DNA of 64,000 nucleotides from Psilocybe cubensis (lineage: Eukaryota): positions 124,001 through 188,000 of the forward strand of contig CM039006.1 in the NCBI GenBank assembly GCA_017499595.2, written 5' to 3'. Each line of letters opens with the position of its first letter. The stretch's first letter is position 1. Shown piece by piece: positions 53,785 to 64,000 of the stretch. Position numbers and translations under genes: made by a program. The notes beneath the pieces were generated by a model that saw only the letters and a list, made by a program, of their open reading frames with translations, had not been told where the DNA came from and made no database searches.

Positions 53785-54154
53785 TTCAAAAGTAGCGACC
53801 GCTTTTTGCAGTGCACTGCCAGCCTGACAAGCCGAATATCAGATGAGCGCACCATATATCTGGCAGGCTATTGCATAGTCGGTCTCTTTAAACGGCACTG
53901 CTTACGGTGTCGTTTACAACCGTACTATTGTGTATTAATATGTAAACAAATGTGCTACATTCTTGTACAAGAGAACAACTTTCTCAAATCAATGTGAGAT
54001 TGGCAATGGCACTTCAGCGTGACCGTAGAGGTCCTTGGTATCATCTTGATTTAATTTTTTTGGTCTTCGATTATCTCACTCGGAAAGCCTTTTAACAAAA
54101 TATATAAAGCGCAATTTTGTTTAAATAAATATATAGATCTATATAAATCTACAG

Positions 54155-57100
54155 TTACCTCGAATACTGAACGGAGAATCCTTTGTTGAAGGCAACACCA
54201 ACAGTAACATCCAACACCTTGTTGGCAGCATCATAAGAAACATCGGACCTTTTCACCGACCTGCCATCAACCGTCACCCTCGAAGGGTTGGCATTAACCC
54301 CGAGGAATCTCACACGGGCAACATTGACGCCCGTGCGGTATCCAAAACGACCGGACACATCCAGCTTGCCATTCGAGAACGCGAACTTGACATTGGTCGA
54401 AGAGGTAACGACGAGAGATTCCCCGTCATCGATGTACAGGGAGCCAGAGGCCTCTCCACGTGCGTTGGGCGCGACGACGAGCTCAAAGTCTGTCTTGCGC
54501 AGCTCGATGGTGGTCATGGCGGACTTGCTGCGAAGGGGCAGGACGACACCGCTCTTGATGTGCAGAGGGATCTCAGTGAAGCTAACATTCTCGAATTTAA
54601 CGAAGGAGCCGGTGCCTTGAACGGGCGCGAGCGTGTTGAAGTCATAGAAGGTATCCTTAGGGAGATAGATGGAGACCGACGTGGCGTCATCTTCAGTGAC
54701 TGGAGAAACGAGGATGGAGTCTCCGTAGAAGAACTGGAGGTCAATGGGGAAGGTGTTACTGTCCTTGGGGTACTTAAACCACAAGGGATGGAGGACGGGA
54801 GTTCCATCAAGATGGGCTTGGTGGAAGGCGGTGTAAAGATAGTCCATTAGACGGTAGCTTGACCCTTCATTAGCAGGGGCTGAAGGGATTTCTAAAAAAA
54901 ACATACCGAACATCGATAGCGGACCTCGCAGCCTCAGCAACAGTGGGCCAGATGTAGAACTCCTGACTGATGGAGTCTTCGCCGTTGTGCTAATGACAGA
55001 TTTGAGAATGAAGGTTCGAAAAAGTACAAAATAAATCACGAACATTGCGCATGAAGGGTTGGAAGGCTCCAAGCGAAGCCCAACGTGCGCAGAGCGTTTC
55101 AGTTGTATTGCCACCTATGAAAAACCACAGTTTGAGTATATGGAATTCGTATTAATCAGTGAAAGGGCTTACCGAAGCCACAAATATCGCTGCCCACCAT
55201 GGGGACCTGATAAATGGAGGCAAAGCCAAGCATCCCAGCGATAGAGAAGCGGTAGTGGTCCCACAAGCTAAGATTATCCCCAAGCCATTTGCCGACGTGA
55301 GCACCGGCGCCAGCAAAGGTAGAGCGAGTGATGATCAAGGGCTTCTTGGACGGGCGGCGTGCCAGCATCGCATGACGAGTCTCCGTGGACATCATTGAAC
55401 CATAGAGATTGTGTGTATCATACTGAGTTAATCCATTGTATTGCTTGATGGAGGTCTGTGAGGCTTGGGTAAGCGATGGTTATTGTGGAGAGAGTACGTG
55501 CTGCCTACATCGGCGGTTTTGTTCGACAGTGACCCAATAGCATTGTCGATAGCGTATGGAGGGTTAATGATGTCATCCCTCTTGCTAAGCTGTGCAACTT
55601 CGGCGGAAGTGTTGGTAAAGAGCGGTGTATCAGCATTGGGAGGGAGTCGGGGACGAGGGGGAGGAAGCTTCTGCTCGATAGACTGGGCGTATGGATCGGC
55701 GCAGGGAGCAATGCAGAACTGAAATTTCGAGCAATTATTGAATGGCACAAGGTTTTGAGAAACTAATGACTCTTACACTGGCAGGTTCGTTCATGTCGAT
55801 CCAAACACCGTCGATATCAACGCCAGTTTGAGGGTTGTAGAAGCGCTTAAATTGATTTGTCCAGTACCTTACACGCCCATATTAGTTGTTGATCGCCGCG
55901 AAAATAAACAAACTCACTTGCGAATATTCTTGTGGAACCAATCTGAAAGTACAATCGTTCAGTTGAGTCTAAATTCACGTTCACTTTTCTAAGCTTACCA
56001 GGGAAAACGCTAACACCTATGGTAAATGCTTAGAAACATTTACAGAACGCGCGAATGCAATACGTACCTGCCCAAACAAGGCCGATGTAGGGGTCTCCGG
56101 TACTATTTTTCAAATAAATATCGAGCTCCTTCCCTTCTTCATATGCGGCATAGCCTTCCCCGGGGAAATATCCGATGGCGGGATCTGTCATCATAACTGT
56201 GCGTGCAGTCGTTAGGAATTGTGATGAGTGATGTATAATAGTACTTGCTGTATTTCTGTCCCTTTCCATGGAGGTAATCAACGATTTCCCTGACCTTCTT
56301 CAGAGGGAAGTAATCGGGATCGAGGGTGAAAGTCCTTCGCCTGTCCATGTAATCTGTAATACGGTTAGACTGGCTATACGTATAGGAAAGGGTAAAACTT
56401 ACCAATATCTGTCCACATTGTTTCGAGGGGGATCTTGGAAGCTGCGTATCTGACAATAACATTGGCAACATCAACAAAATCTGCAACAAACAGTGTAAGA
56501 AATTGGAGGTTCAACAAATGTTAAAAGAGCGAACCTCTGTAGCCGAATCGACACTGGTGGAACCCAAACGACCAGTATGGTACTTCCGCGGGTAGTCCAA
56601 CAACCTCAGAATATTGACGGGCTAATTCAGTGGGATCCCGTTCGCTGCCGGCAAGGAAATAGAAATCGAGAACACCTCCGATGATATTGTATTCAAGCGA
56701 GTTGCTGTTCAACTTGATATCCATGCCGTTCGAGTTGAGCAAGAAGACACCGTGGGTACCAGTCGTACGATGCTCAAAGTAGACGGGGTGGTTACCGTAC
56801 AAGTTCGATCTGGGTGAAATGCCATACGCATCCCTCGACCAGAGAGTCAGGGTCAGGTTGTCGGTCGGAAGGTGGAAAGGATTTGTGTGCTCTCCGAGAC
56901 CATAAATGTTGGGGTTCTGAGGCAAGTTGGTCTTGACACGAAGATACTGGGGTTCGAATATTAAAGGGTTGCCTGCAGTCGAAAATAGGACCTCGCGAGT
57001 GTTGGCACGATACACAGAGAATGAGAAGGGAGAAGTCGTGTAGTTGAAACGTATATTAGCGGCTTGCGGTGGCACAGAACGTCTGGCATCGGGGCGGGGA

Positions 57101-57461
57101 AAAACTGAAGCAGGTACTTCATATCGGGCGGCGGACGCGTCAACAATTTTGACGTGGATACGGTCGGCTGAAAAATAAGGTTAGCATTCGTCGATGATGA
57201 GAAGTCCAGTCCCCTACAGGTCTCGTATACAACGTTGAGGGACAGTTTGTTGATGTCGGGGCCAAAGACGTTGCATCCTGAGCCTCTCAGCGTAAGATCT
57301 GCGGTAAGCCCGTCGCGTTTTGTCCTAACATTGGTGGCAGTGTAGCCAGGGCATGCTTGGAGGATGCTGGGATCGACAACAGCAGCAAGGGTAGATACTG
57401 GCAGAAGAGATAAAGCTACAAGGGCGCGTAGCTTCGAGTTCCGATGCTGGTTGGACATCAT
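54155..57461 (-). CDS. Secreted glycoside hydrolase family 31 alpha-glucosidase
   Basis: Signal peptide, [32 protein letters not shown], catalytic [24 protein letters not shown]. Confidence 0.95.
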
Positions 57462-59765
57462 GAGAAGGACCACAAAGAAAAGAGCAGAAAAGCGAACCAC
57501 TTTATACTGCTAGACATGCAAAGCATGAACTTGGTGTTGCATTTCTCGGCTACAATGCATTTCCTTGGTAAATTGCATCTGATATGAGTCGGTAGAGTCC
57601 AATTTCTGATTAAGCCTTTGGTTTACCTTTCAGCCTGGCCCAAGAGTCGTTGCGCACGATGGGGGACTCTAGAAACCCGAGTTAGAAAACATCCGCATCC
57701 GATTTACAGACAAAAACCGGCCCTAAGTGATGATATTGGTCACGAGGCATGACCCCACATATTTTGTTGGGGTCTCACACTGATCGCGTAGGCTTTACAT
57801 GTTCATCTCAACTCCATCCGTCCATTGGTATCCAAATATCTGCGACGAAGACGATTTAGAGTCGCATATTCACTGGGTTGAAAATCAAATGCCTCTTCTA
57901 CCGACCGTTGTCAAATTTATCTGGTTCCAAACTCTGGGGATCAAGAAGGATTTGAGCGGCGTCGACAGCCATTAACATCGGCACCCATGGGGTGAAGTGG
58001 GGTAATGTAAGGCACTTTCTGATACCAGTATTTTTTTACCAGGTCAGAAGACATCTCAAGACTTTCGACAACGTGGTCGAAGGCTCGGAACTCCCGAATG
58101 CTCAAGCGCTCAGGCCCAGGTTTCAAAAACTTGGCTCTAACATGGGAACCGAATTATCCTCTATGAAGCCTGTGGTTTATTGTACGCCCTGTGCCTATGA
58201 TTTTATACATGATGCAAGTCTGCGACAATGATAGAGGTCAATGAAAGCAACATTTTGGCTTAGTGGCGCACTGAGCTGACTCCCTCGTTGCAGCTCAATA
58301 TTATTGACCATGAACTTTTTTACTGTTCCATGAACCTTTCGCGGCCTTTCGCTCGTAAAGGGGTGCTTGGGATTTGGAGCACAACAAGAAGTTGAGATGT
58401 GCGTAATGACGGCGTATATGAAAAAGGCTCCAATAAAAGGTTCGGATCTCGCATGAATCGTAAGAAATGATACAAATCGAATATCACATTTTAGGACGTC
58501 CACCGACAGAAGCGCTCAAGCCACGATAGCGCCACGCGAGTTCCACGCGGTATTCAAACATTTTGGGTCCATGAATCCATTGCGGCCGATTGACCAGCAT
58601 TCTGGCCGAGGAGTTCTTATGTCCGTCTGCAGCCGATGCATATAATTTGCCAGTACACCCACACAGCAGGCTTCAGTCACCCCTTACCACTCAAGACTAT
58701 CTATCGCCCAATTGAATCTTTGAGCAAAATTACAGTTGCCGCGTCCATTCCCGGACCTTTGCATCAGCGAATGTTCGAGAAATAGCAATAAAATAATGTC
58801 CGGTGCCCCGCAACCTCAACCCCATGCGTTCCAAATTCGGGTAATTCTGGGCCTTGGCCTTCATCATGAATGATTTTACGTAGCTTGCCTCCAAAACCTA
58901 CTCAGACCCGCCGAATTCCAATTGCGTTTCTCTGGGTCTTGTCCTGTTTCTAGAAGGAAATCTTAGCTCAATCATGCGGCGAGGAACCGCTTCCCAGTGA
59001 CGTTCGCACACAGGATAATTTTGCTAAACGTTGCACGTTGTCATGTACTTCGTTCTTTCGCAGCAATCGTTCATGATTCTATCCATCCACAATCACTGTA
59101 TGGTTATCAACGTTTGGTAGAATCGAGTGGTTTGAGCATCTAACTCGCCTCTGTGGTTTACTGTCTTTGTGCTCACACCTCGAGTAACGACCCATCTTTG
59201 ATTGTATATACGCTAACTTGACTAATATCAACCAGCAGGCAAACGGGTAGAGTCATTTTGACTATCTTTTGACTATCTATTTACTAGTACTCGCTACTTC
59301 CACGCACCATTGACGATTTATATTCGTATCATGCTCATACGACCAAATGCAGTTACACTATTGCTGCGCAATATACTGACGGTGCTCTCGCGATTTCTTT
59401 TCATTGTTGAAGAATCACGATTGGTTGAATTGAAAGAGACTTGCTCTCTTCCGCCTTTACCTATACCTTGCTTTCGAAGTTGACCGCCCCATTACCGCAT
59501 CTGAAAATTATGTGCGTAATGCTCTAACTTTTGTGGTGATTTGACTTTGAATTGACTTGAAATTTCAAACGGGCTTCAAAGAATAATTATTGATAAAATA
59601 TTATGAGATAAAAAATCGTTGTGATATTTGTCGATCGATGTACTAAGCAAACGCTAAACGACCACGTAATTCTACTGTTAAATTGTCCATTCCGATAGGG
59701 ATGTGCGAGTCGTTCTTTACCCGGCTAACGAAATAATGAACAGGTGCCGTGATTTATACCAAATT

Positions 59766-61054
59766 CTAGAAGGCAGTTCCCTGTTCGGAGCCTAGACGAT
59801 AAAGTGTGAGTTAGTAAACTCCGTTTTGTAGTCGTTGAAGGCCCGAGGCATACTCTCTGCAAAGATTGGTTATTATTTTAGTATGACAGTACAATATGGC
59901 ATAGAATAAATTTACACACCAGTCCTGCGGAAAGCAGTTCCCTGCTCAGAGGCTACAAAATAGAAGTCAGGACATTAATATTTATCAGGAGTTCAGAAGA
60001 GATTTTAAATACCATCAACGCGTTTAAAAGCCGTTCCCTGTTCACCGCGCTTGAATGCAGTGCTCTGCTCGTCACGTTTGAAAGCCGTGCCTTGTTCGCC
60101 ACGTCGGAAAGCGGTGCTCTGCTCCTCACGCTTGAAGGCGGTCTCCTGCTCATCGCGCTTGAAAGCGGTCCCCTGATCATTGCGCTTGAAAGCGGTTCCT
60201 TGTTCGTCTCGCCTAAATTCAGTGCTCTGTTCGCCACGCTTGAAAGCAGTTCCTTGTTCGCCACGCTTGAAAGCAGTTCCCTGTTCGTCACGCTTGAACG
60301 CAGTGGACTGCTCGTCGCGCTTGAACGCAGTATTCTGCTCGCCACGTTTGAAAGCAGTACCTTGTTCATCACGTCGGAAAGTAGTGCCTTGTTCATCACG
60401 GCGGGACGCAGTGCCCTGTTCGCTACGTTTGAACGCGGTTCCCTGCTCGGCGTCTAAACCAAAATTCTCAAAACGGACAATGTTCGGGTGCAATTCAAAG
60501 AAGCATACCTTCTACTAAAAAGGCAAAAATTAAGAGCTGTCATAATTCTATTTCTAAATCAACAAAAACGTACCAGCTCTACGGAAGGCGGTTCCTTGTT
60601 CGGTGGCTGATAGAAGCTCAGGGAAAATGATATTGTAGGGGAGGAAGTTCATGGTGCTTACCCTCTATGAAAGAAGTTCAGAAATAGACAGAACCGGAAT
60701 TTAGTGTAATTAGTACTCACTGGACCTACGGAACGCAGTTCCTTGCTCGGAAGCTTCGGAAAGTGTCGTTTATTTCCAAAGAGCAGCAAGACAGGATACA
60801 ACCAAACTTACAAGGAATAAGATCTACAATTTGATTCAATATAAATATTGTATATAAGTAGGATATATAGCAAAGTAACACTCACCAGTCCTACGGAATG
60901 CGGTTCCCTGCTCTGAGTCTAAGTACAAGTATTATCATTCAGTCAAGGAGTGAAACATAAATTATGACCACATACTTTGGCTGGCTATTGGGCTAGCTGA
61001 TACCATGAAGGCCGACATGGCGGTGACAGCAAAGAGCAAGTGCTTAAATTGCAT
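59766..61054 (-). CDS. Secreted Kex2-processed repeat protein (KEP); candidate RiPP precursor
   Basis: Signal peptide MQFKHLLFAVTAMSAFMVSASP. Spliced product ...NSEQGTAFRR TDLIPSSEQGTAFRR SKATEQGTAFRR A(V)EDAEQGTAFKR, then 15 further 9-aa repeats, then VDASEQGTAFRR TESSEQGTAF*. All introns are GT-AG and phase 1. Confidence 0.9.
60013..60453 (-). repeat. 16 tandem 27-bp coding repeats (x-E-Q-G-T-A-F-K/R-R)
   Basis: Read directly from ORF 60005-60493; third positions vary while the dibasic sites are retained in every unit. Confidence 0.95.
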
Positions 61055-62059
61055 GGTGAAAGTGTTGTGGCAAGGAACTTGTAGATGGGGGATCTAACTT
61101 TCGATAAATTTTTGACCATTTTTATATGAAAATTGAGCACCCGCAGCGAGGGTAATATTGTCGATTAGTAACGTAGGTTGTACGCGAGTCTCCCGGGTAT
61201 GAGAAGGCATTGTTACATGGCTTCTTTTGTCCAGATTGCAAAAATCTTGTGATGGAGCCACAACAGTGGAATTGTATCGCCTCGTCCTCTGACACGGAAC
61301 ACATTTAAAACTATATTGATTAGCAGTTGAGTTTCTTTATTTTTGCCGACGTGTATTCATTCTGGCCCGAGTGTTTTCGTCGATTACGGCTCTCCGAGCG
61401 AGATTCTGAGAGAAAGGAACGAGGGTGAGCCCCACCGAGTAGGTCTTAGCCCGGATTAAACCTTGAAACATTGAGTGTCTGCTGACCGTTACTAAGACCA
61501 AGTCAATGGCTCAGATACCCATATCTGCAATCTTATACGGTGGAAGCTCACCAGGTGTGAAATACATATTGGTCATTAACCCCAATTCTATTTTTTAGAA
61601 AGTCTGAACTTTATCTTCAAACTAATAAAAGATTGTGATAGTGAGAACCCCTTTCTTCAATCTCATGCTAGACAGAGGGAACGCGGAAAATTTCTTTGGG
61701 GACTAGCGTCATCGATATCCCCATCAGTGGATTGTATTTTGAACATAGTTTGTCGAAGCTTGGATGTATTCATCTCAATATGACACGCGTCTCGCCGCAC
61801 TTTACTCAGGATTATCATGTGGGCTACCCTTCTCTCAAGCACGGGAATCAAACTACGCATTCACGACGAAATTCTTGCATGAAAATACCGCTCAATAAAG
61901 CTTCCCGCTGTAGTTCTCAGTAGCATATTGCTCTGCCACAGCAAGAAAATAAACACAACTAACACATGTTATATCAACAATGATTCGAATCAATTTAACA
62001 AAATCTTATCGTGCTAGATTTAAGGAAAGTACACCAGATCAAACATCATCTACTAACAC

Positions 62060-63073
62060 CTAATTGGGACTTCTACTGGTTTTATTCCTGACAATGTGAT
62101 CGGATGGAACGTGAACGGCATTCTGAACTGCCCAATTGTAAATAGCGTCGAAACGACGGCATTGGTGTATCTTGTCAAAATTTGGGTGAGGTTTATCGCC
62201 CTTCCATCTGTATGTGAGTACAGTAACATCCCCAGCACACGATATGGTTTGTCGAAGCAATTCAATGCAATGATCTTGAATGTTTTTGAAAGGATTGAGC
62301 TTGGTTAAAGTTTCTGACATGGATCAAGAAATACCTAGGTGTCCTCTGAGTTCCTCCGCTGGTACTGTAAAGAAGCGGTCATCCTTGTAATACATCGGGT
62401 ACGTTGCTTTGCGCAGTAAATTCTGGATATTTTTTTAGCCATCTTCGCCTTCTGAAGGTTCAATACTTACTACACAATGAAGCTGATGGAGAACCCCGAC
62501 TGAGGCCATGGCACCGCCGCCGTCTTCTTCAGAGAATTTTACCAAAGTTTCATTGTCTTCAGTGTTAACCAATGACAACCATTCCATCGGGATTCTCATA
62601 GGGCGCACTGGTGGAGGTATTTTAGTATCCCAAGTATGGCTATAAAAGCAGTATCTCTACCGTCATCTGTTATCTTGTCCCAAGCTGCAGTAATCTCCGG
62701 TGTTGGGTGCCCCTGGTAAAGCATAGACTCTTCTGATGATAGATTGAAGAGACGTGGGTAGTAGTTTATAACACCAGATGCGGGCGCTAAAAAGCGTAAA
62801 TAAGTATGTTTCATAGAGAAATCATAATGACCTACAAAACGATGTCACTCGGGAAATGAACTCTTGTTCAATATCGTGCCTGATGCGTAGCGCTTCAAGA
62901 AAGAACAATATACCGGCTGTAAGGAAGACGATGTTCAAAGTAGTTGCACAGAAGAAGGCAGCCCTAGAGTATGACCTTGGAGGTTGTTTTGGAGTAACTC
63001 TGGGAAGCAAATTCTCTAAGGAGGGCGTTTCGCCCTTGTCATCAAGGAGGGAGTATACTGGATGGTCAGGCAT
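62060..63073 (-). CDS. DUF3328/UstYa-family oxidase
   Basis: N-terminal TM helix, YQGHPTPEITAAWDKI, GGGAMASVGVLHQLHCV/NLLRK, LRGHL/DHCIELLRQTISCAGDVT, PNFDKIHQCRRFDAIYNWA. Both HxxHC motifs (HQLHC, HLDHC) are present after splicing. Confidence 0.92.
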
Positions 63074-64000
63074 GACAAAAGAAAACAATCTCTGAGAAAT
63101 AAGAACGGATGTGTTAAATGCTCTAATATCGCTTGAGAGTCTTGATTGTGTTTTGGGGGAGCAAATGGAATCAAAATTATTCCGAATAACTTCAGAAACT
63201 CGATAAATTTCCCCGAGATCCGCTCATATTAACTCTCCGGTCTGACCATTGGCTTTGTTGTAACACTGACCTTGAGTTAACTTGGATGCATTGGCACGCG
63301 CGAAAGGGGATGTCTCAGGCTTTGAGTATAACTGCGTAGCATTGGCAAATAACCCCTTTTTGTAAAGCCGTGTCAATTTAAAACTACCCGATGCGTACAA
63401 TTACGATCTTCAGTTTAGGAAGGGTAGTTGAATACTGGTTATAATCGTAGAAAACGATTTCTCCCGTGGGAGTTTGAAGTAGAAATAATTTGCCAATCCT
63501 TTTGGAAGTTTACCAAAGTTTACCATCAATTGCCATAACCCCCAGGGAAGAAATTTTGGTCATCCACAACAAGTCAGATAGCCTAGCGATTGGGAAATGG
63601 TTGATACCATGCTAATTTGTGGAAAAAAAAAATTCACTGCGGCTGAGCGGCTTTCAGCTCCACTCCCTGTCATATTTCTATTTCTGTTCAACTTTGTTTC
63701 TTGCTTCGCCCATACTGGGCCGGTAACAAATCTATTCCAGTCTATAGAAGTATAACTTGAGTTTGATTCTTATGCCATTTTTCTCTCATAGCATTCTCGG
63801 TTACGTGTACAATTACGATAGATGCCTCAGTCTATCATCACGATGAAGTTTAATGGATTGATAGGATTGCCAGTGATACTAAACATAATTTTGAACCTTG
63901 TAACTTGGTCTATCCTCGCTTTTGATGGTGCTGAGATCCACGATATTGTGTGGCTCTGAGCTGTCGGCCGTTCGCCCCCCTTGCCTTGGACGTGATCCCT

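Follow-up and report, generated by a model that had tools for sequence, protein, structure and literature searches.

Psilocybe cubensis carries an unannotated gene for a predicted secreted KEX2-processed repeat protein (KEP) precursor with 21 dibasic-flanked cores directly beside a gene for a putative copper oxidase of the UstYa/DUF3328 family, members of which cyclise peptide toxins in fungi, within a 64,000-nucleotide stretch of DNA (the window). We propose, with a probability of roughly 0.55, that the oxidase modifies the EQGTAF precursor and that the two genes form a minimal, dikaritin-like peptide locus; this RiPP reading of the locus is plausible but unproven. A secreted, multi-core precursor of the Kex2 type next to a gene for a DUF3328 protein that has two HxxHC motifs is described as the signature of dikaritin-type loci (PMC12048977; PMC7329392), and these sources bear out an earlier note on this DNA, which had invoked that signature. 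Peptides of this type are reported as characterised to date only in Ascomycota (PMC12048977). Basidiomycete pairs of KEP and DUF3328 genes are already known from computation, and the P. cubensis pair adds a further one.

A repeat precursor spread over seven exons

The precursor gene occupies positions 59766-61054 on the minus strand. Its seven exons give a coding sequence of 678 nt that runs from an ATG at 61054 to a TAG at 59768-59766 and encodes 225 amino acids; all six introns have GT..AG borders and lie in phase 1, and the array joins up without an internal stop. Exon 1 (60976-61054) contains the start codon and a predicted signal peptide (residues 1-22; 61054-60989), which by inspection and hydropathy (Kyte-Doolittle 11-residue maximum of 2.1) comprises a basic n-region, a 13-residue hydrophobic core and a small-residue cleavage region. 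Four further exons are mini-exons of 33 nt, each of phase 1-1 and each encoding one EQGTAF-RR unit, namely exons 2 (60886-60918), 3 (60721-60753), 4 (60574-60606) and 6 (59920-59952). Exon 5 (60013-60453; 441 nt) holds an array of 16 nine-residue units, in which one linker residue is followed by a six-residue core and KR or RR. The final core is encoded by exon 7 (59766-59791), where the Phe codon is followed directly by TAG.

The consensus of the 21 cores is EQGTAF, found in 12 of them; three others read EQSTAF and six are single variants. Twelve units end in KR and eight in RR, while the last ends in the stop codon. Glu, Gln, Thr and Phe are each conserved in 20 or 21 of the 21 units, Phe being the C-terminal residue of 20 cores, and the cores are preceded by variable N-terminal linkers of one to four residues. 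Tyr, Trp and Cys are absent from all 225 residues of the precursor. Third codon positions are almost random across the cores: pN is 0.087 and pS 0.756, so that pN/pS is 0.115 and synonymous sites are close to saturation. Purifying selection on the cores is strong, and what is conserved is the peptide rather than the DNA repeat. The degenerate pattern E-Q-x-T-A-F occurs 17 times in the window, always within the KEP gene, against 0.04 occurrences expected from shuffles.

An annotated DUF3328 oxidase as direct neighbour

The oxidase gene (62060-63073, minus strand) encodes 267 amino acids in five exons (63073-62836, 62786-62661, 62607-62471, 62422-62335 and 62274-62060). A profile search of the spliced protein against PF11807, which the earlier note had suggested as a check, gave a clear match for the full-length sequence, which scores 177.9 bits (cut-off 25; E = 3.4e-52) and aligns with positions 8-219 of the 220-position profile. 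Of the four exon ORFs searched, three likewise align with consecutive segments of the profile. The first HxxHC motif, HQLHC, lies at residues 162-166 (62474-62488) and the second, HLDHC, at residues 195-199 (62267-62341). The codons of the latter are interrupted by intron 4 (62341-62335 and 62274-62267), so that the motif is present only if this intron ends at 62275, with its acceptor before 62274. That end is confirmed by the identity, letter for letter, of the 267-residue model to a deposited 267-residue P. cubensis protein (P0149), and by the identity of exons 2-5 to a 197-residue NCBI model; the oxidase is annotated in P. cubensis.

A transmembrane anchor is predicted at residues 38-60 (62894-62962), where the Kyte-Doolittle 19-residue maximum reaches 2.09; 19-residue values exceed 1.6 in just one stretch of the protein, beginning at residues 38-46. 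From this hydropathy profile, the oxidase would be a type-II membrane protein with its catalytic domain facing the lumen. Psilocybe cyanescens has two UstYa relatives, CVT25_013887 and CVT25_013893, which show 76-78% identity and are encoded on a single 66,775-bp contig at a distance of six locus tags; HQLHC and HLDHC are invariant in both. A sequence search among solved structures for members of the UstYa/DUF3328 family yielded no match at E <= 1, and the Atlas gives the same family assignment and nothing further. A metagenome scan for UstYa relatives returned one distant locus among 462 pattern matches (34% identity, on a 2835-bp contig); no repeat precursor was found on this contig, a result that is uninformative.

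Both genes lie on the minus strand, immediately next to each other, with the KEP gene downstream. The spacer from the oxidase stop codon to the KEP start codon (61055-62059) measures 1005 bp, its ORFs have no Pfam match, and it presumably holds the KEP promoter. The earlier note had described a secreted precursor with about 21 dibasic-flanked cores, some 1.0 kb downstream of and co-oriented with an intact DUF3328 gene carrying both HxxHC motifs; every element of this description holds, the core number being exactly 21 and the signal peptide a predicted one. The regions upstream of the two genes share seven ten-mers (shuffle mean 1.8, maximum 8), which we do not use as evidence because both regions are AT-rich and the null is a simple shuffle.

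On the sequenced side, the neighbours of the locus are a GH31 glycosidase gene and housekeeping genes. The 20 ORFs scanned there (of 75 with at least 110 amino acids) include no tyrosinase, methyltransferase, peptidase or transporter, and the eight small ORFs that flank the locus include no accessory tailoring or transport gene. On the other side, the window extends only 927 bp beyond the oxidase gene. Accessory genes are not obligatory in such systems, given that the asperipin-2a and U. virens ustiloxin clusters are described as having no peptidase (PMC12048977).

Searches for the precursor and the locus elsewhere

No relative of the KEP precursor was detected at E <= 0.001 among 5570 word-sharing candidates of 80-256 amino acids in a protein collection. 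A second search, against 1.84 billion representative proteins, returned 144 matches at E <= 0.001, and all of those inspected are unrelated charged repeats (motif counts for the matches below 700 amino acids, 15 of them inspected in full, and the top match alone for those of at least 700). The best identity, 55%, was to a 192-residue protein whose repeat is of another kind and which lacks a dibasic array. One of the look-alikes comes from a sea slug. Both searches probably missed the precursor because its coding sequence is divided between a 441-nt array and five exons of 26-33 nt with one core each. An omega-atracotoxin Pfam match of the KEP ORF (22.3 bits, just above the cut-off of 22) was rejected as low-complexity noise; no stretch of the match passes alone.

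A metagenome scan for two adjacent KEP cores gave no matches and is uninformative. The string 'EQGTAF' appears in no paper in the literature searched, and Psilocybe is linked there with DUF3328, UstY or Kex2 nowhere beyond the genus lists of the 2020 survey. DNA contigs from two further P. cubensis samples contain the locus with little change. Differences in sample X3 at 60254-60290 were taken as a register shift rather than as real variants, since they are located within the array, 43-79 letters away from the end of a contig, and together read like the neighbouring unit. Two probable RNA runs (X4 and X5) provided spliced contigs that cover the GH31 gene, as well as one short transcript (58.4-58.9 kb). 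None of their contigs covers 59218-64000, and they are uninformative, either way, on expression or co-expression of the KEP and oxidase genes.

Discussion

A two-gene system of this kind could operate as follows. The precursor would enter the secretory pathway, and the catalytic domain of the oxidase would face the same lumen. Kex2 would cut after each KR or RR and Kex1 would take off the basic pair, to leave Phe-ended peptides, in agreement with the Phe-stop end of the last core; the N-terminal linkers of one to four residues would be trimmed or tolerated. For unmodified linear products, the calculated [M+H]+ values are 652.294 (EQGTAF), 709.315 (GEQGTAF), 739.326 (SEQGTAF), 767.321 (DEQGTAF) and 506.225 (pyroGlu-GTAF). 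The weakest step comes last: the oxidase, a putative O2-dependent enzyme that has a binuclear copper site and attacks inert C(sp3)-H bonds, would oxidise the hexapeptide at one position. Most probably this would give a side-chain cross-link or a hydroxylation that involves either the Phe at the C-terminus or the Thr, both conserved, and each translated precursor could yield up to 21 modified hexapeptides. As to the type of modification, macrocyclisation of the KEP peptide by the oxidase is possible but doubtful; other oxidation of the peptide, by hydroxylation, desaturation or halogenation, appears slightly more doubtful again.

By sequence, the oxidase can be compared with CctR, the cyclochlorotine hydroxylase and a biochemically characterised DUF3328 enzyme. 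Both belong to PF11807, both have a hydrophobic helix near the N-terminus (38-59 in CctR, 38-60 in P. cubensis), and both carry the arrangement HxxHC(x)nHxxHC with more Cys after the second motif (PMC12435403). In CctR, this arrangement is reported to bind two coppers and to be essential for activity (PMC12435403). The substrate of CctR, in contrast, is a non-ribosomal cyclic peptide.

Among the dikaritin-type systems, asperipin-2a of Aspergillus flavus (AprA and AprY) resembles the P. cubensis locus in having a single DUF3328 gene and a compact precursor, with a repeat unit of eight residues in AprA and nine in the P. cubensis array (PMC7329392). Its enzyme is described as copper- and O2-dependent and attacks the C-beta of Phe (PMC12186524), a residue that the P. 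cubensis core contains. Asperipin-2a is, however, an ascomycete product cross-linked via Tyr phenol oxygens, whereas the P. cubensis core has no Tyr. The ustiloxin and phomopsin systems (UstA/UstYa/UstYb; PhomA/PhomYa-e) share with P. cubensis a signal peptide followed by Kex2-separated repeats, as well as class-defining DUF3328 enzymes with two HxxHC motifs (PMC7329392; PMC12048977). They differ from it in their Y-x-I-x cores with a Tyr-Ile ether bridge and their units of 13-14 residues, and in the presence of two to five DUF3328 genes together with a tyrosinase, a methyltransferase and peptidases, accessory genes that were not found on the sequenced P. cubensis side.

To our knowledge, Tyr is the residue of all cross-links in the ustiloxins, phomopsins, asperipins and epichloecyclins. 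The aromatic residue typical of dikaritins is therefore missing in its Tyr form from the precursor, which has no Tyr, and a conserved Phe is present as in victorin. In victorin, a Tyr-less precedent from Cochliobolus victoriae, a review describes a ring between the side chain of the C-terminal Phe and an internal Leu, made from a multi-core precursor of the Kex2 type as in P. cubensis (PMC9233826). The P. cubensis core, in contrast, contains no Leu, and victorin is a chlorinated, heavily modified ascomycete product of a larger gene set, compared with two genes here. By this analogy, victorin would be the sole, and a partial, precedent for oxidation via the C-terminal Phe of a Tyr-less core. 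We regard it as a tentative idea, with the odds against it, that P. cubensis makes the first basidiomycete dikaritin, a Tyr-less E-Q-x-T-A-F hexapeptide macrocyclised or oxidised via its C-terminal Phe by a single UstYa enzyme. The suggestion in the earlier note of a RiPP system making an oxidatively modified or cyclised short peptide stands in part: the pairing signature and the PF11807 match favour it, and the lack of Tyr in the cores and of accessory genes on the sequenced side speaks against it.

The principal alternative is that the precursor is an ordinary KEP that yields linear hexa- or heptapeptides, at most N-trimmed or pyroglutamylated, for signalling or biotic interactions, and that the UstYa gene is its neighbour by coincidence or acts on another substrate. 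We consider this a serious contender, at somewhat less than even odds. A core without Tyr, Trp or Cys is in keeping with it: Tyr is reported in 65.6% of the repeats of DUF3328-accompanied KEPs and in 38.2% of those of unaccompanied ones (PMC7329392), such that a Tyr-less core leans mildly towards no link with the oxidase. In the same survey, 103 of 1680 basidiomycete KEPs (6.1%; 2020 count) have a DUF3328 gene within 15 genes and 93.9% have none at that distance, and its author suggests that there may be hardly any cyclisation in Basidiomycota (PMC7329392). DUF3328 loci without a known precursor are also common in basidiomycetes, whose genomes may each contain many of them; Fomitopsis betulina has nine fungal-RiPP-like clusters, and Termitomyces has DUF3328 clusters without a precursor. 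Enzymes of this family are moreover reported to tailor non-ribosomal peptides such as cyclochlorotine (PMC12435403).

The linear KEP-derived peptides of agaricomycetes (Coprinopsis cinerea, Lentinula edodes and Pleurotus spp.) come from the same class of fungi and have the same precursor architecture, and the KEP peptides detected to date in four agaricomycetes are described as linear or only pyroglutamylated (PMC9769878). They share with the P. cubensis core a Gln on the N-terminal side and hence a possible pyroglutamate, and the conserved Gln after a short, variable N-terminus would suit trimming and pyroglutamate formation as in C. cinerea (PMC9769878). These peptides are nevertheless longer, at 8-20 residues, and several of them bear Ste13 dipeptide signatures and end in Trp (PMC9769878). 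The terms 'DUF3328' and 'UstYa' appear nowhere in the main text of that paper (PMC9769878), whereas the P. cubensis KEP gene directly adjoins such a gene.

Coincidence would seldom bring about such an adjacency. If some 10-30 DUF3328 genes are assumed among about 12,000-13,000 genes, direct adjacency by chance would be expected for approximately 0.2-0.5% of KEPs. Across 1461 fungal genomes, the DUF3328 count is reported to peak at the position adjoining a KEP gene, and for 31.8% of all genes of this family a KEP gene is no more than 15 genes away (PMC7329392). The two P. cubensis genes are in addition co-oriented and 1 kb apart, and the products of both are predicted to enter the secretory pathway.

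It is highly improbable that the repeat region is instead non-functional, either as a decaying or silent repeat locus or as a multi-exon model that is an artefact of reading a DNA repeat: such a reading could draw on the lack of a similar protein in either collection searched and on a gene model built from sequence signals only, but a DNA repeat would not preserve Glu, Gln, Thr and Phe in 20-21 of the 21 units when its synonymous sites are almost saturated, nor would it account for five isolated pieces of 26-33 nt that each encode a perfect core between GT..AG flanks, in phase 1 throughout, and that join, without a single internal stop, to the exon encoding the start codon and signal peptide, in a locus little changed in two other samples of the species.

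Modification of the EQGTAF precursor by its neighbouring oxidase remains the reading that we favour. With one precursor and one oxidase, the P. cubensis locus is near the minimum size for such systems, and as a two-gene locus in an easily grown mushroom it makes the RiPP question directly testable. Published KEP surveys began from predicted proteomes and could therefore not have found the P. cubensis precursor. If our reading is true, proteome-based surveys would miss precursors that are split over several exons and would under-count the precursor/oxidase pairs of mushrooms.

A repeat precursor that is readable only once spliced

The KEX2-processed repeat protein (KEP) gene lies at 59766–61054 on the minus strand and can be read only once spliced. 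Its seven-exon model opens with a 79-nt exon that supplies the start codon and encodes a hydrophobic signal sequence, continues with exons of 33, 33, 33, 441, 33, and 26 nt, and leaves 225 codons open; all six introns are GT..AG and in phase 1. Each small exon contains one core and the large exon contains 16, which bears out the earlier note's claim of a secreted precursor with about 21 dibasic-flanked cores: there are 21, and 20 are followed by a dibasic pair (KR in 12 cases, RR in eight), with the stop codon directly after the terminal Phe of the last. The consensus EQGTAF occurs 12 times and EQSTAF three times, the remaining six being single variants (EQGTAS, EQGTTF, EQNTAF, EQSTEF, DQGTAF, and EQETAF). 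The protein lacks Tyr, Trp, and Cys throughout.

A search of the 64-kb window with a degenerate DNA version of the core gave 17 matches, all inside the KEP gene, where 0.04 were expected. The repeat units are ancient, and it is the peptide they encode that has been conserved: codon positions 1 and 2 of E, Q, T, and F vary little or not at all, whereas position 3 is almost random. Between units, pS is 0.756 and pN 0.087 (ratio 0.115). Moreover, EQ-x-TAF is constant across units while the N-terminal linker varies, being a single D, G, S, N, or E in the array and three to four residues long in the small exons, so that the mature product is probably the hexapeptide or a derivative.

Of the five single-core exons, four measure exactly 33 nt, and all five contain an unaltered consensus core with RR or a stop codon behind it; variant cores and KR pairs are confined to the large exon. 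Intron length is a multiple of three in five cases out of six. These exon sizes, intron phases and lengths, and core distribution suggest that the gene grew by exon duplication plus in-exon repeat expansion.

Introns 2, 3, 4, and 6 (60754–60885, 60607–60720, 60454–60573, and 59792–59919; 132, 114, 120, and 128 nt) have roughly double the length usual for introns nearby, 48–60 nt. Each can be read as two introns of 55–63 nt around a tiny in-frame piece (12, 3, 6 or 3, and 3 nt, respectively) with its own acceptor and a GTAAGT, GTAAGC, or GTATGC donor. If used, these candidate micro-exons would alter only linkers between cores. Spliced RNA contigs of the neighboring GH31 gene contain a 15-nt micro-exon (~56000–56014) whose flanking introns measure ~56 and 51 nt, which shows that the P. 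cubensis genome does use micro-exons.

DNA contigs from both other P. cubensis samples break within the 16-unit array (60332–60415), perhaps because strains differ in repeat number, or simply because short reads do not assemble across it. Away from contig ends, one of these samples (X3) carries E163G, converting the odd core EQETAF to the consensus, together with a linker change (E169D) and a core change (E51K).

The precursor appears to be unannotated and undescribed, since the searches gave no related protein and no literature mention. A search with the 146-residue array in the right frame found no relative among proteins of 80–256 residues. HMMER, run exhaustively against 1.84 billion representatives, returned 144 weak matches; those inspected were charged repeats with no relation to the precursor, at best 55% identical, where the gene's own product would score 100%. 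In the literature searched, the string EQGTAF was absent and Psilocybe was tied to DUF3328 or Kex2 only in genus lists. The split-exon build is a plausible reason why the gene went unannotated.

An oxidase gene upstream on the same strand

The five-exon oxidase gene (63073–62060, minus strand) ends 1005 bp upstream of the KEP start codon. Its 267-residue model matches letter for letter a deposited P. cubensis protein (P0149; UniRef A0A8H7XMI2), and exons 2–5 agree with the NCBI model KAH9477309.1/XP_047744934.1. The latter has 197 residues and starts at a Met inside intron 1, without the membrane anchor; exon 1, which encodes the cytosolic tail and anchor, is missing from it (62787–63073 spans exon 1 and intron 1). 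The automatic names, "Cyclochlorotine biosynthesis protein O" (NCBI model) and "Tat pathway signal sequence" (A0A8H7XMI2), are both misleading.

As the earlier note had supposed, the spliced 62060–63073 protein belongs to the UstYa/DUF3328 family: PF11807 scored 177.9 bits (cut-off 25), with the alignment spanning profile positions 8–219 of 220. It has one hydrophobic helix (residues 38–60) and the motifs HQLHC (162–166) and HLDHC (195–199), the second assembled across intron 4. In the cyclochlorotine hydroxylase CctR, a family member that has been studied biochemically, the helix spans 38–59, with the N-terminus in the cytosol and a helical domain in the lumen; two coppers bind at the HxxHC(x)nHxxHC site, and the enzyme requires O2 and electrons (PMC12435403). 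The identity with the deposited protein marks the window as P. cubensis DNA. Given the profile match and the agreement with CctR in helix position and double motif, the oxidase looks intact at the sequence level, and the proposed co-oriented DUF3328 gene with both motifs about 1.0 kb away is recovered.

Genes around the pair

Downstream of the KEP gene, a GH31 glycosidase gene (~54154–57722, minus strand) is represented by spliced RNA in two runs and has at least 14 short introns of 48–58 nt; beyond it lie a DUF202 protein, methionyl-tRNA synthetase, and ATG14. No tyrosinase, methyltransferase, peptidase, P450, or transporter was matched in the 20 ORFs scanned of 75 (at least 110 aa), and eight small ORFs in the spacers and the last 927 bp of the window gave no match. 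On the sequenced side, the cluster, if it is one at all, comprises two genes. Between the GH31 and KEP genes, both RNA runs contain a short spliced plus-strand transcript (~58335–58933; GT..AG intron at ~58438–58492) whose longest reconstructed ORF is 49 aa. ORFs near it have no Pfam match, and the transcript could be a non-coding RNA or come from a small gene that annotation has missed.

Does the oxidase act on the precursor?

We favor the reading that the oxidase acts on the precursor, with a probability of roughly 0.55. In Umemura's 2020 survey of 1461 genomes, DUF3328 genes were most frequent directly beside a KEP gene, and those within 15 genes of a KEP made up 31.8% of all (PMC7329392). 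On assumed counts of 10–30 DUF3328 genes among ~12,000–13,000 genes, chance would place one directly adjacent to ~0.2–0.5% of KEPs. Both this estimate and the peak beside KEP genes count against the main alternative, a linear KEP next to an unrelated gene. In addition, a pair of HxxHC motifs is taken to distinguish the DUF3328 members involved with RiPPs (PMC7329392; PMC12048977), and both products are predicted to enter the secretory pathway. The chemistry also has precedents: victorin, with a Tyr-less core and C-terminal Phe, is cyclized in the dikaritin class (PMC9233826), and the carbon attacked in asperipin-2a is Phe C-beta (PMC12186524).

The unrelated-neighbor alternative is nevertheless a real, if lesser, possibility. 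The core lacks Tyr, the residue used by all characterized members other than victorin, and Tyr-less repeats make up 61.8% in unaccompanied KEPs versus 34.4% in DUF3328-accompanied ones (derived from PMC7329392). Of 1680 basidiomycete KEPs, no more than 103 had a DUF3328 gene at a distance of 15 genes or less (PMC7329392), and DUF3328 loci without a precursor are common in basidiomycetes. The KEP peptides detected in four agaricomycetes are linear or only pyroglutamylated (PMC9769878), and DUF3328 enzymes act on non-ribosomal peptides too (PMC12435403). That the precursor is not a functional gene is highly improbable, its repeat units keeping their peptide.

In P. cyanescens, two oxidase relatives (76–78% identical) lie on a single 66,775-bp contig at a distance of six locus tags and may form a duplicated block, which might contain precursors as well; both deposited models (P0002, PPQ96025.1; P0003, PPQ96031.1) retain intron sequence or skip an exon. 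Metagenome scans gave nothing informative on precursor-oxidase linkage. RNA contigs left the KEP-oxidase locus uncovered, which counts neither for nor against expression.

Judging from the families involved, the precursor would enter the ER; in the Golgi, Kex2 would cut it behind each KR or RR, and Kex1 would strip the basic pair. Each processed peptide would end in Phe; the last core, with its stop codon after Phe, needs no trimming and agrees with this. More speculatively, the oxidase might abstract hydrogen from an sp3 carbon, with Phe C-beta (the carbon attacked in asperipin) and the Thr side chain as candidates, leaving a cross-link or a hydroxyl group.

Relationship to known systems

With a precursor and a DUF3328 gene carrying two HxxHC motifs, the locus formally qualifies, from its sequence, as a dikaritin-class candidate and would work like one. 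Asperipin-2a is closest in layout, with a single oxidase and 8-residue units, and victorin in core chemistry, with its C-terminal Phe. No basidiomycete product of dikaritin type was reported in the literature searched. The locus is not a new kind of system, since the 2020 survey had included a count of precursor-DUF3328 pairs in Basidiomycota (PMC7329392); this particular precursor appears to be unannotated and is Tyr-less and oddly built.
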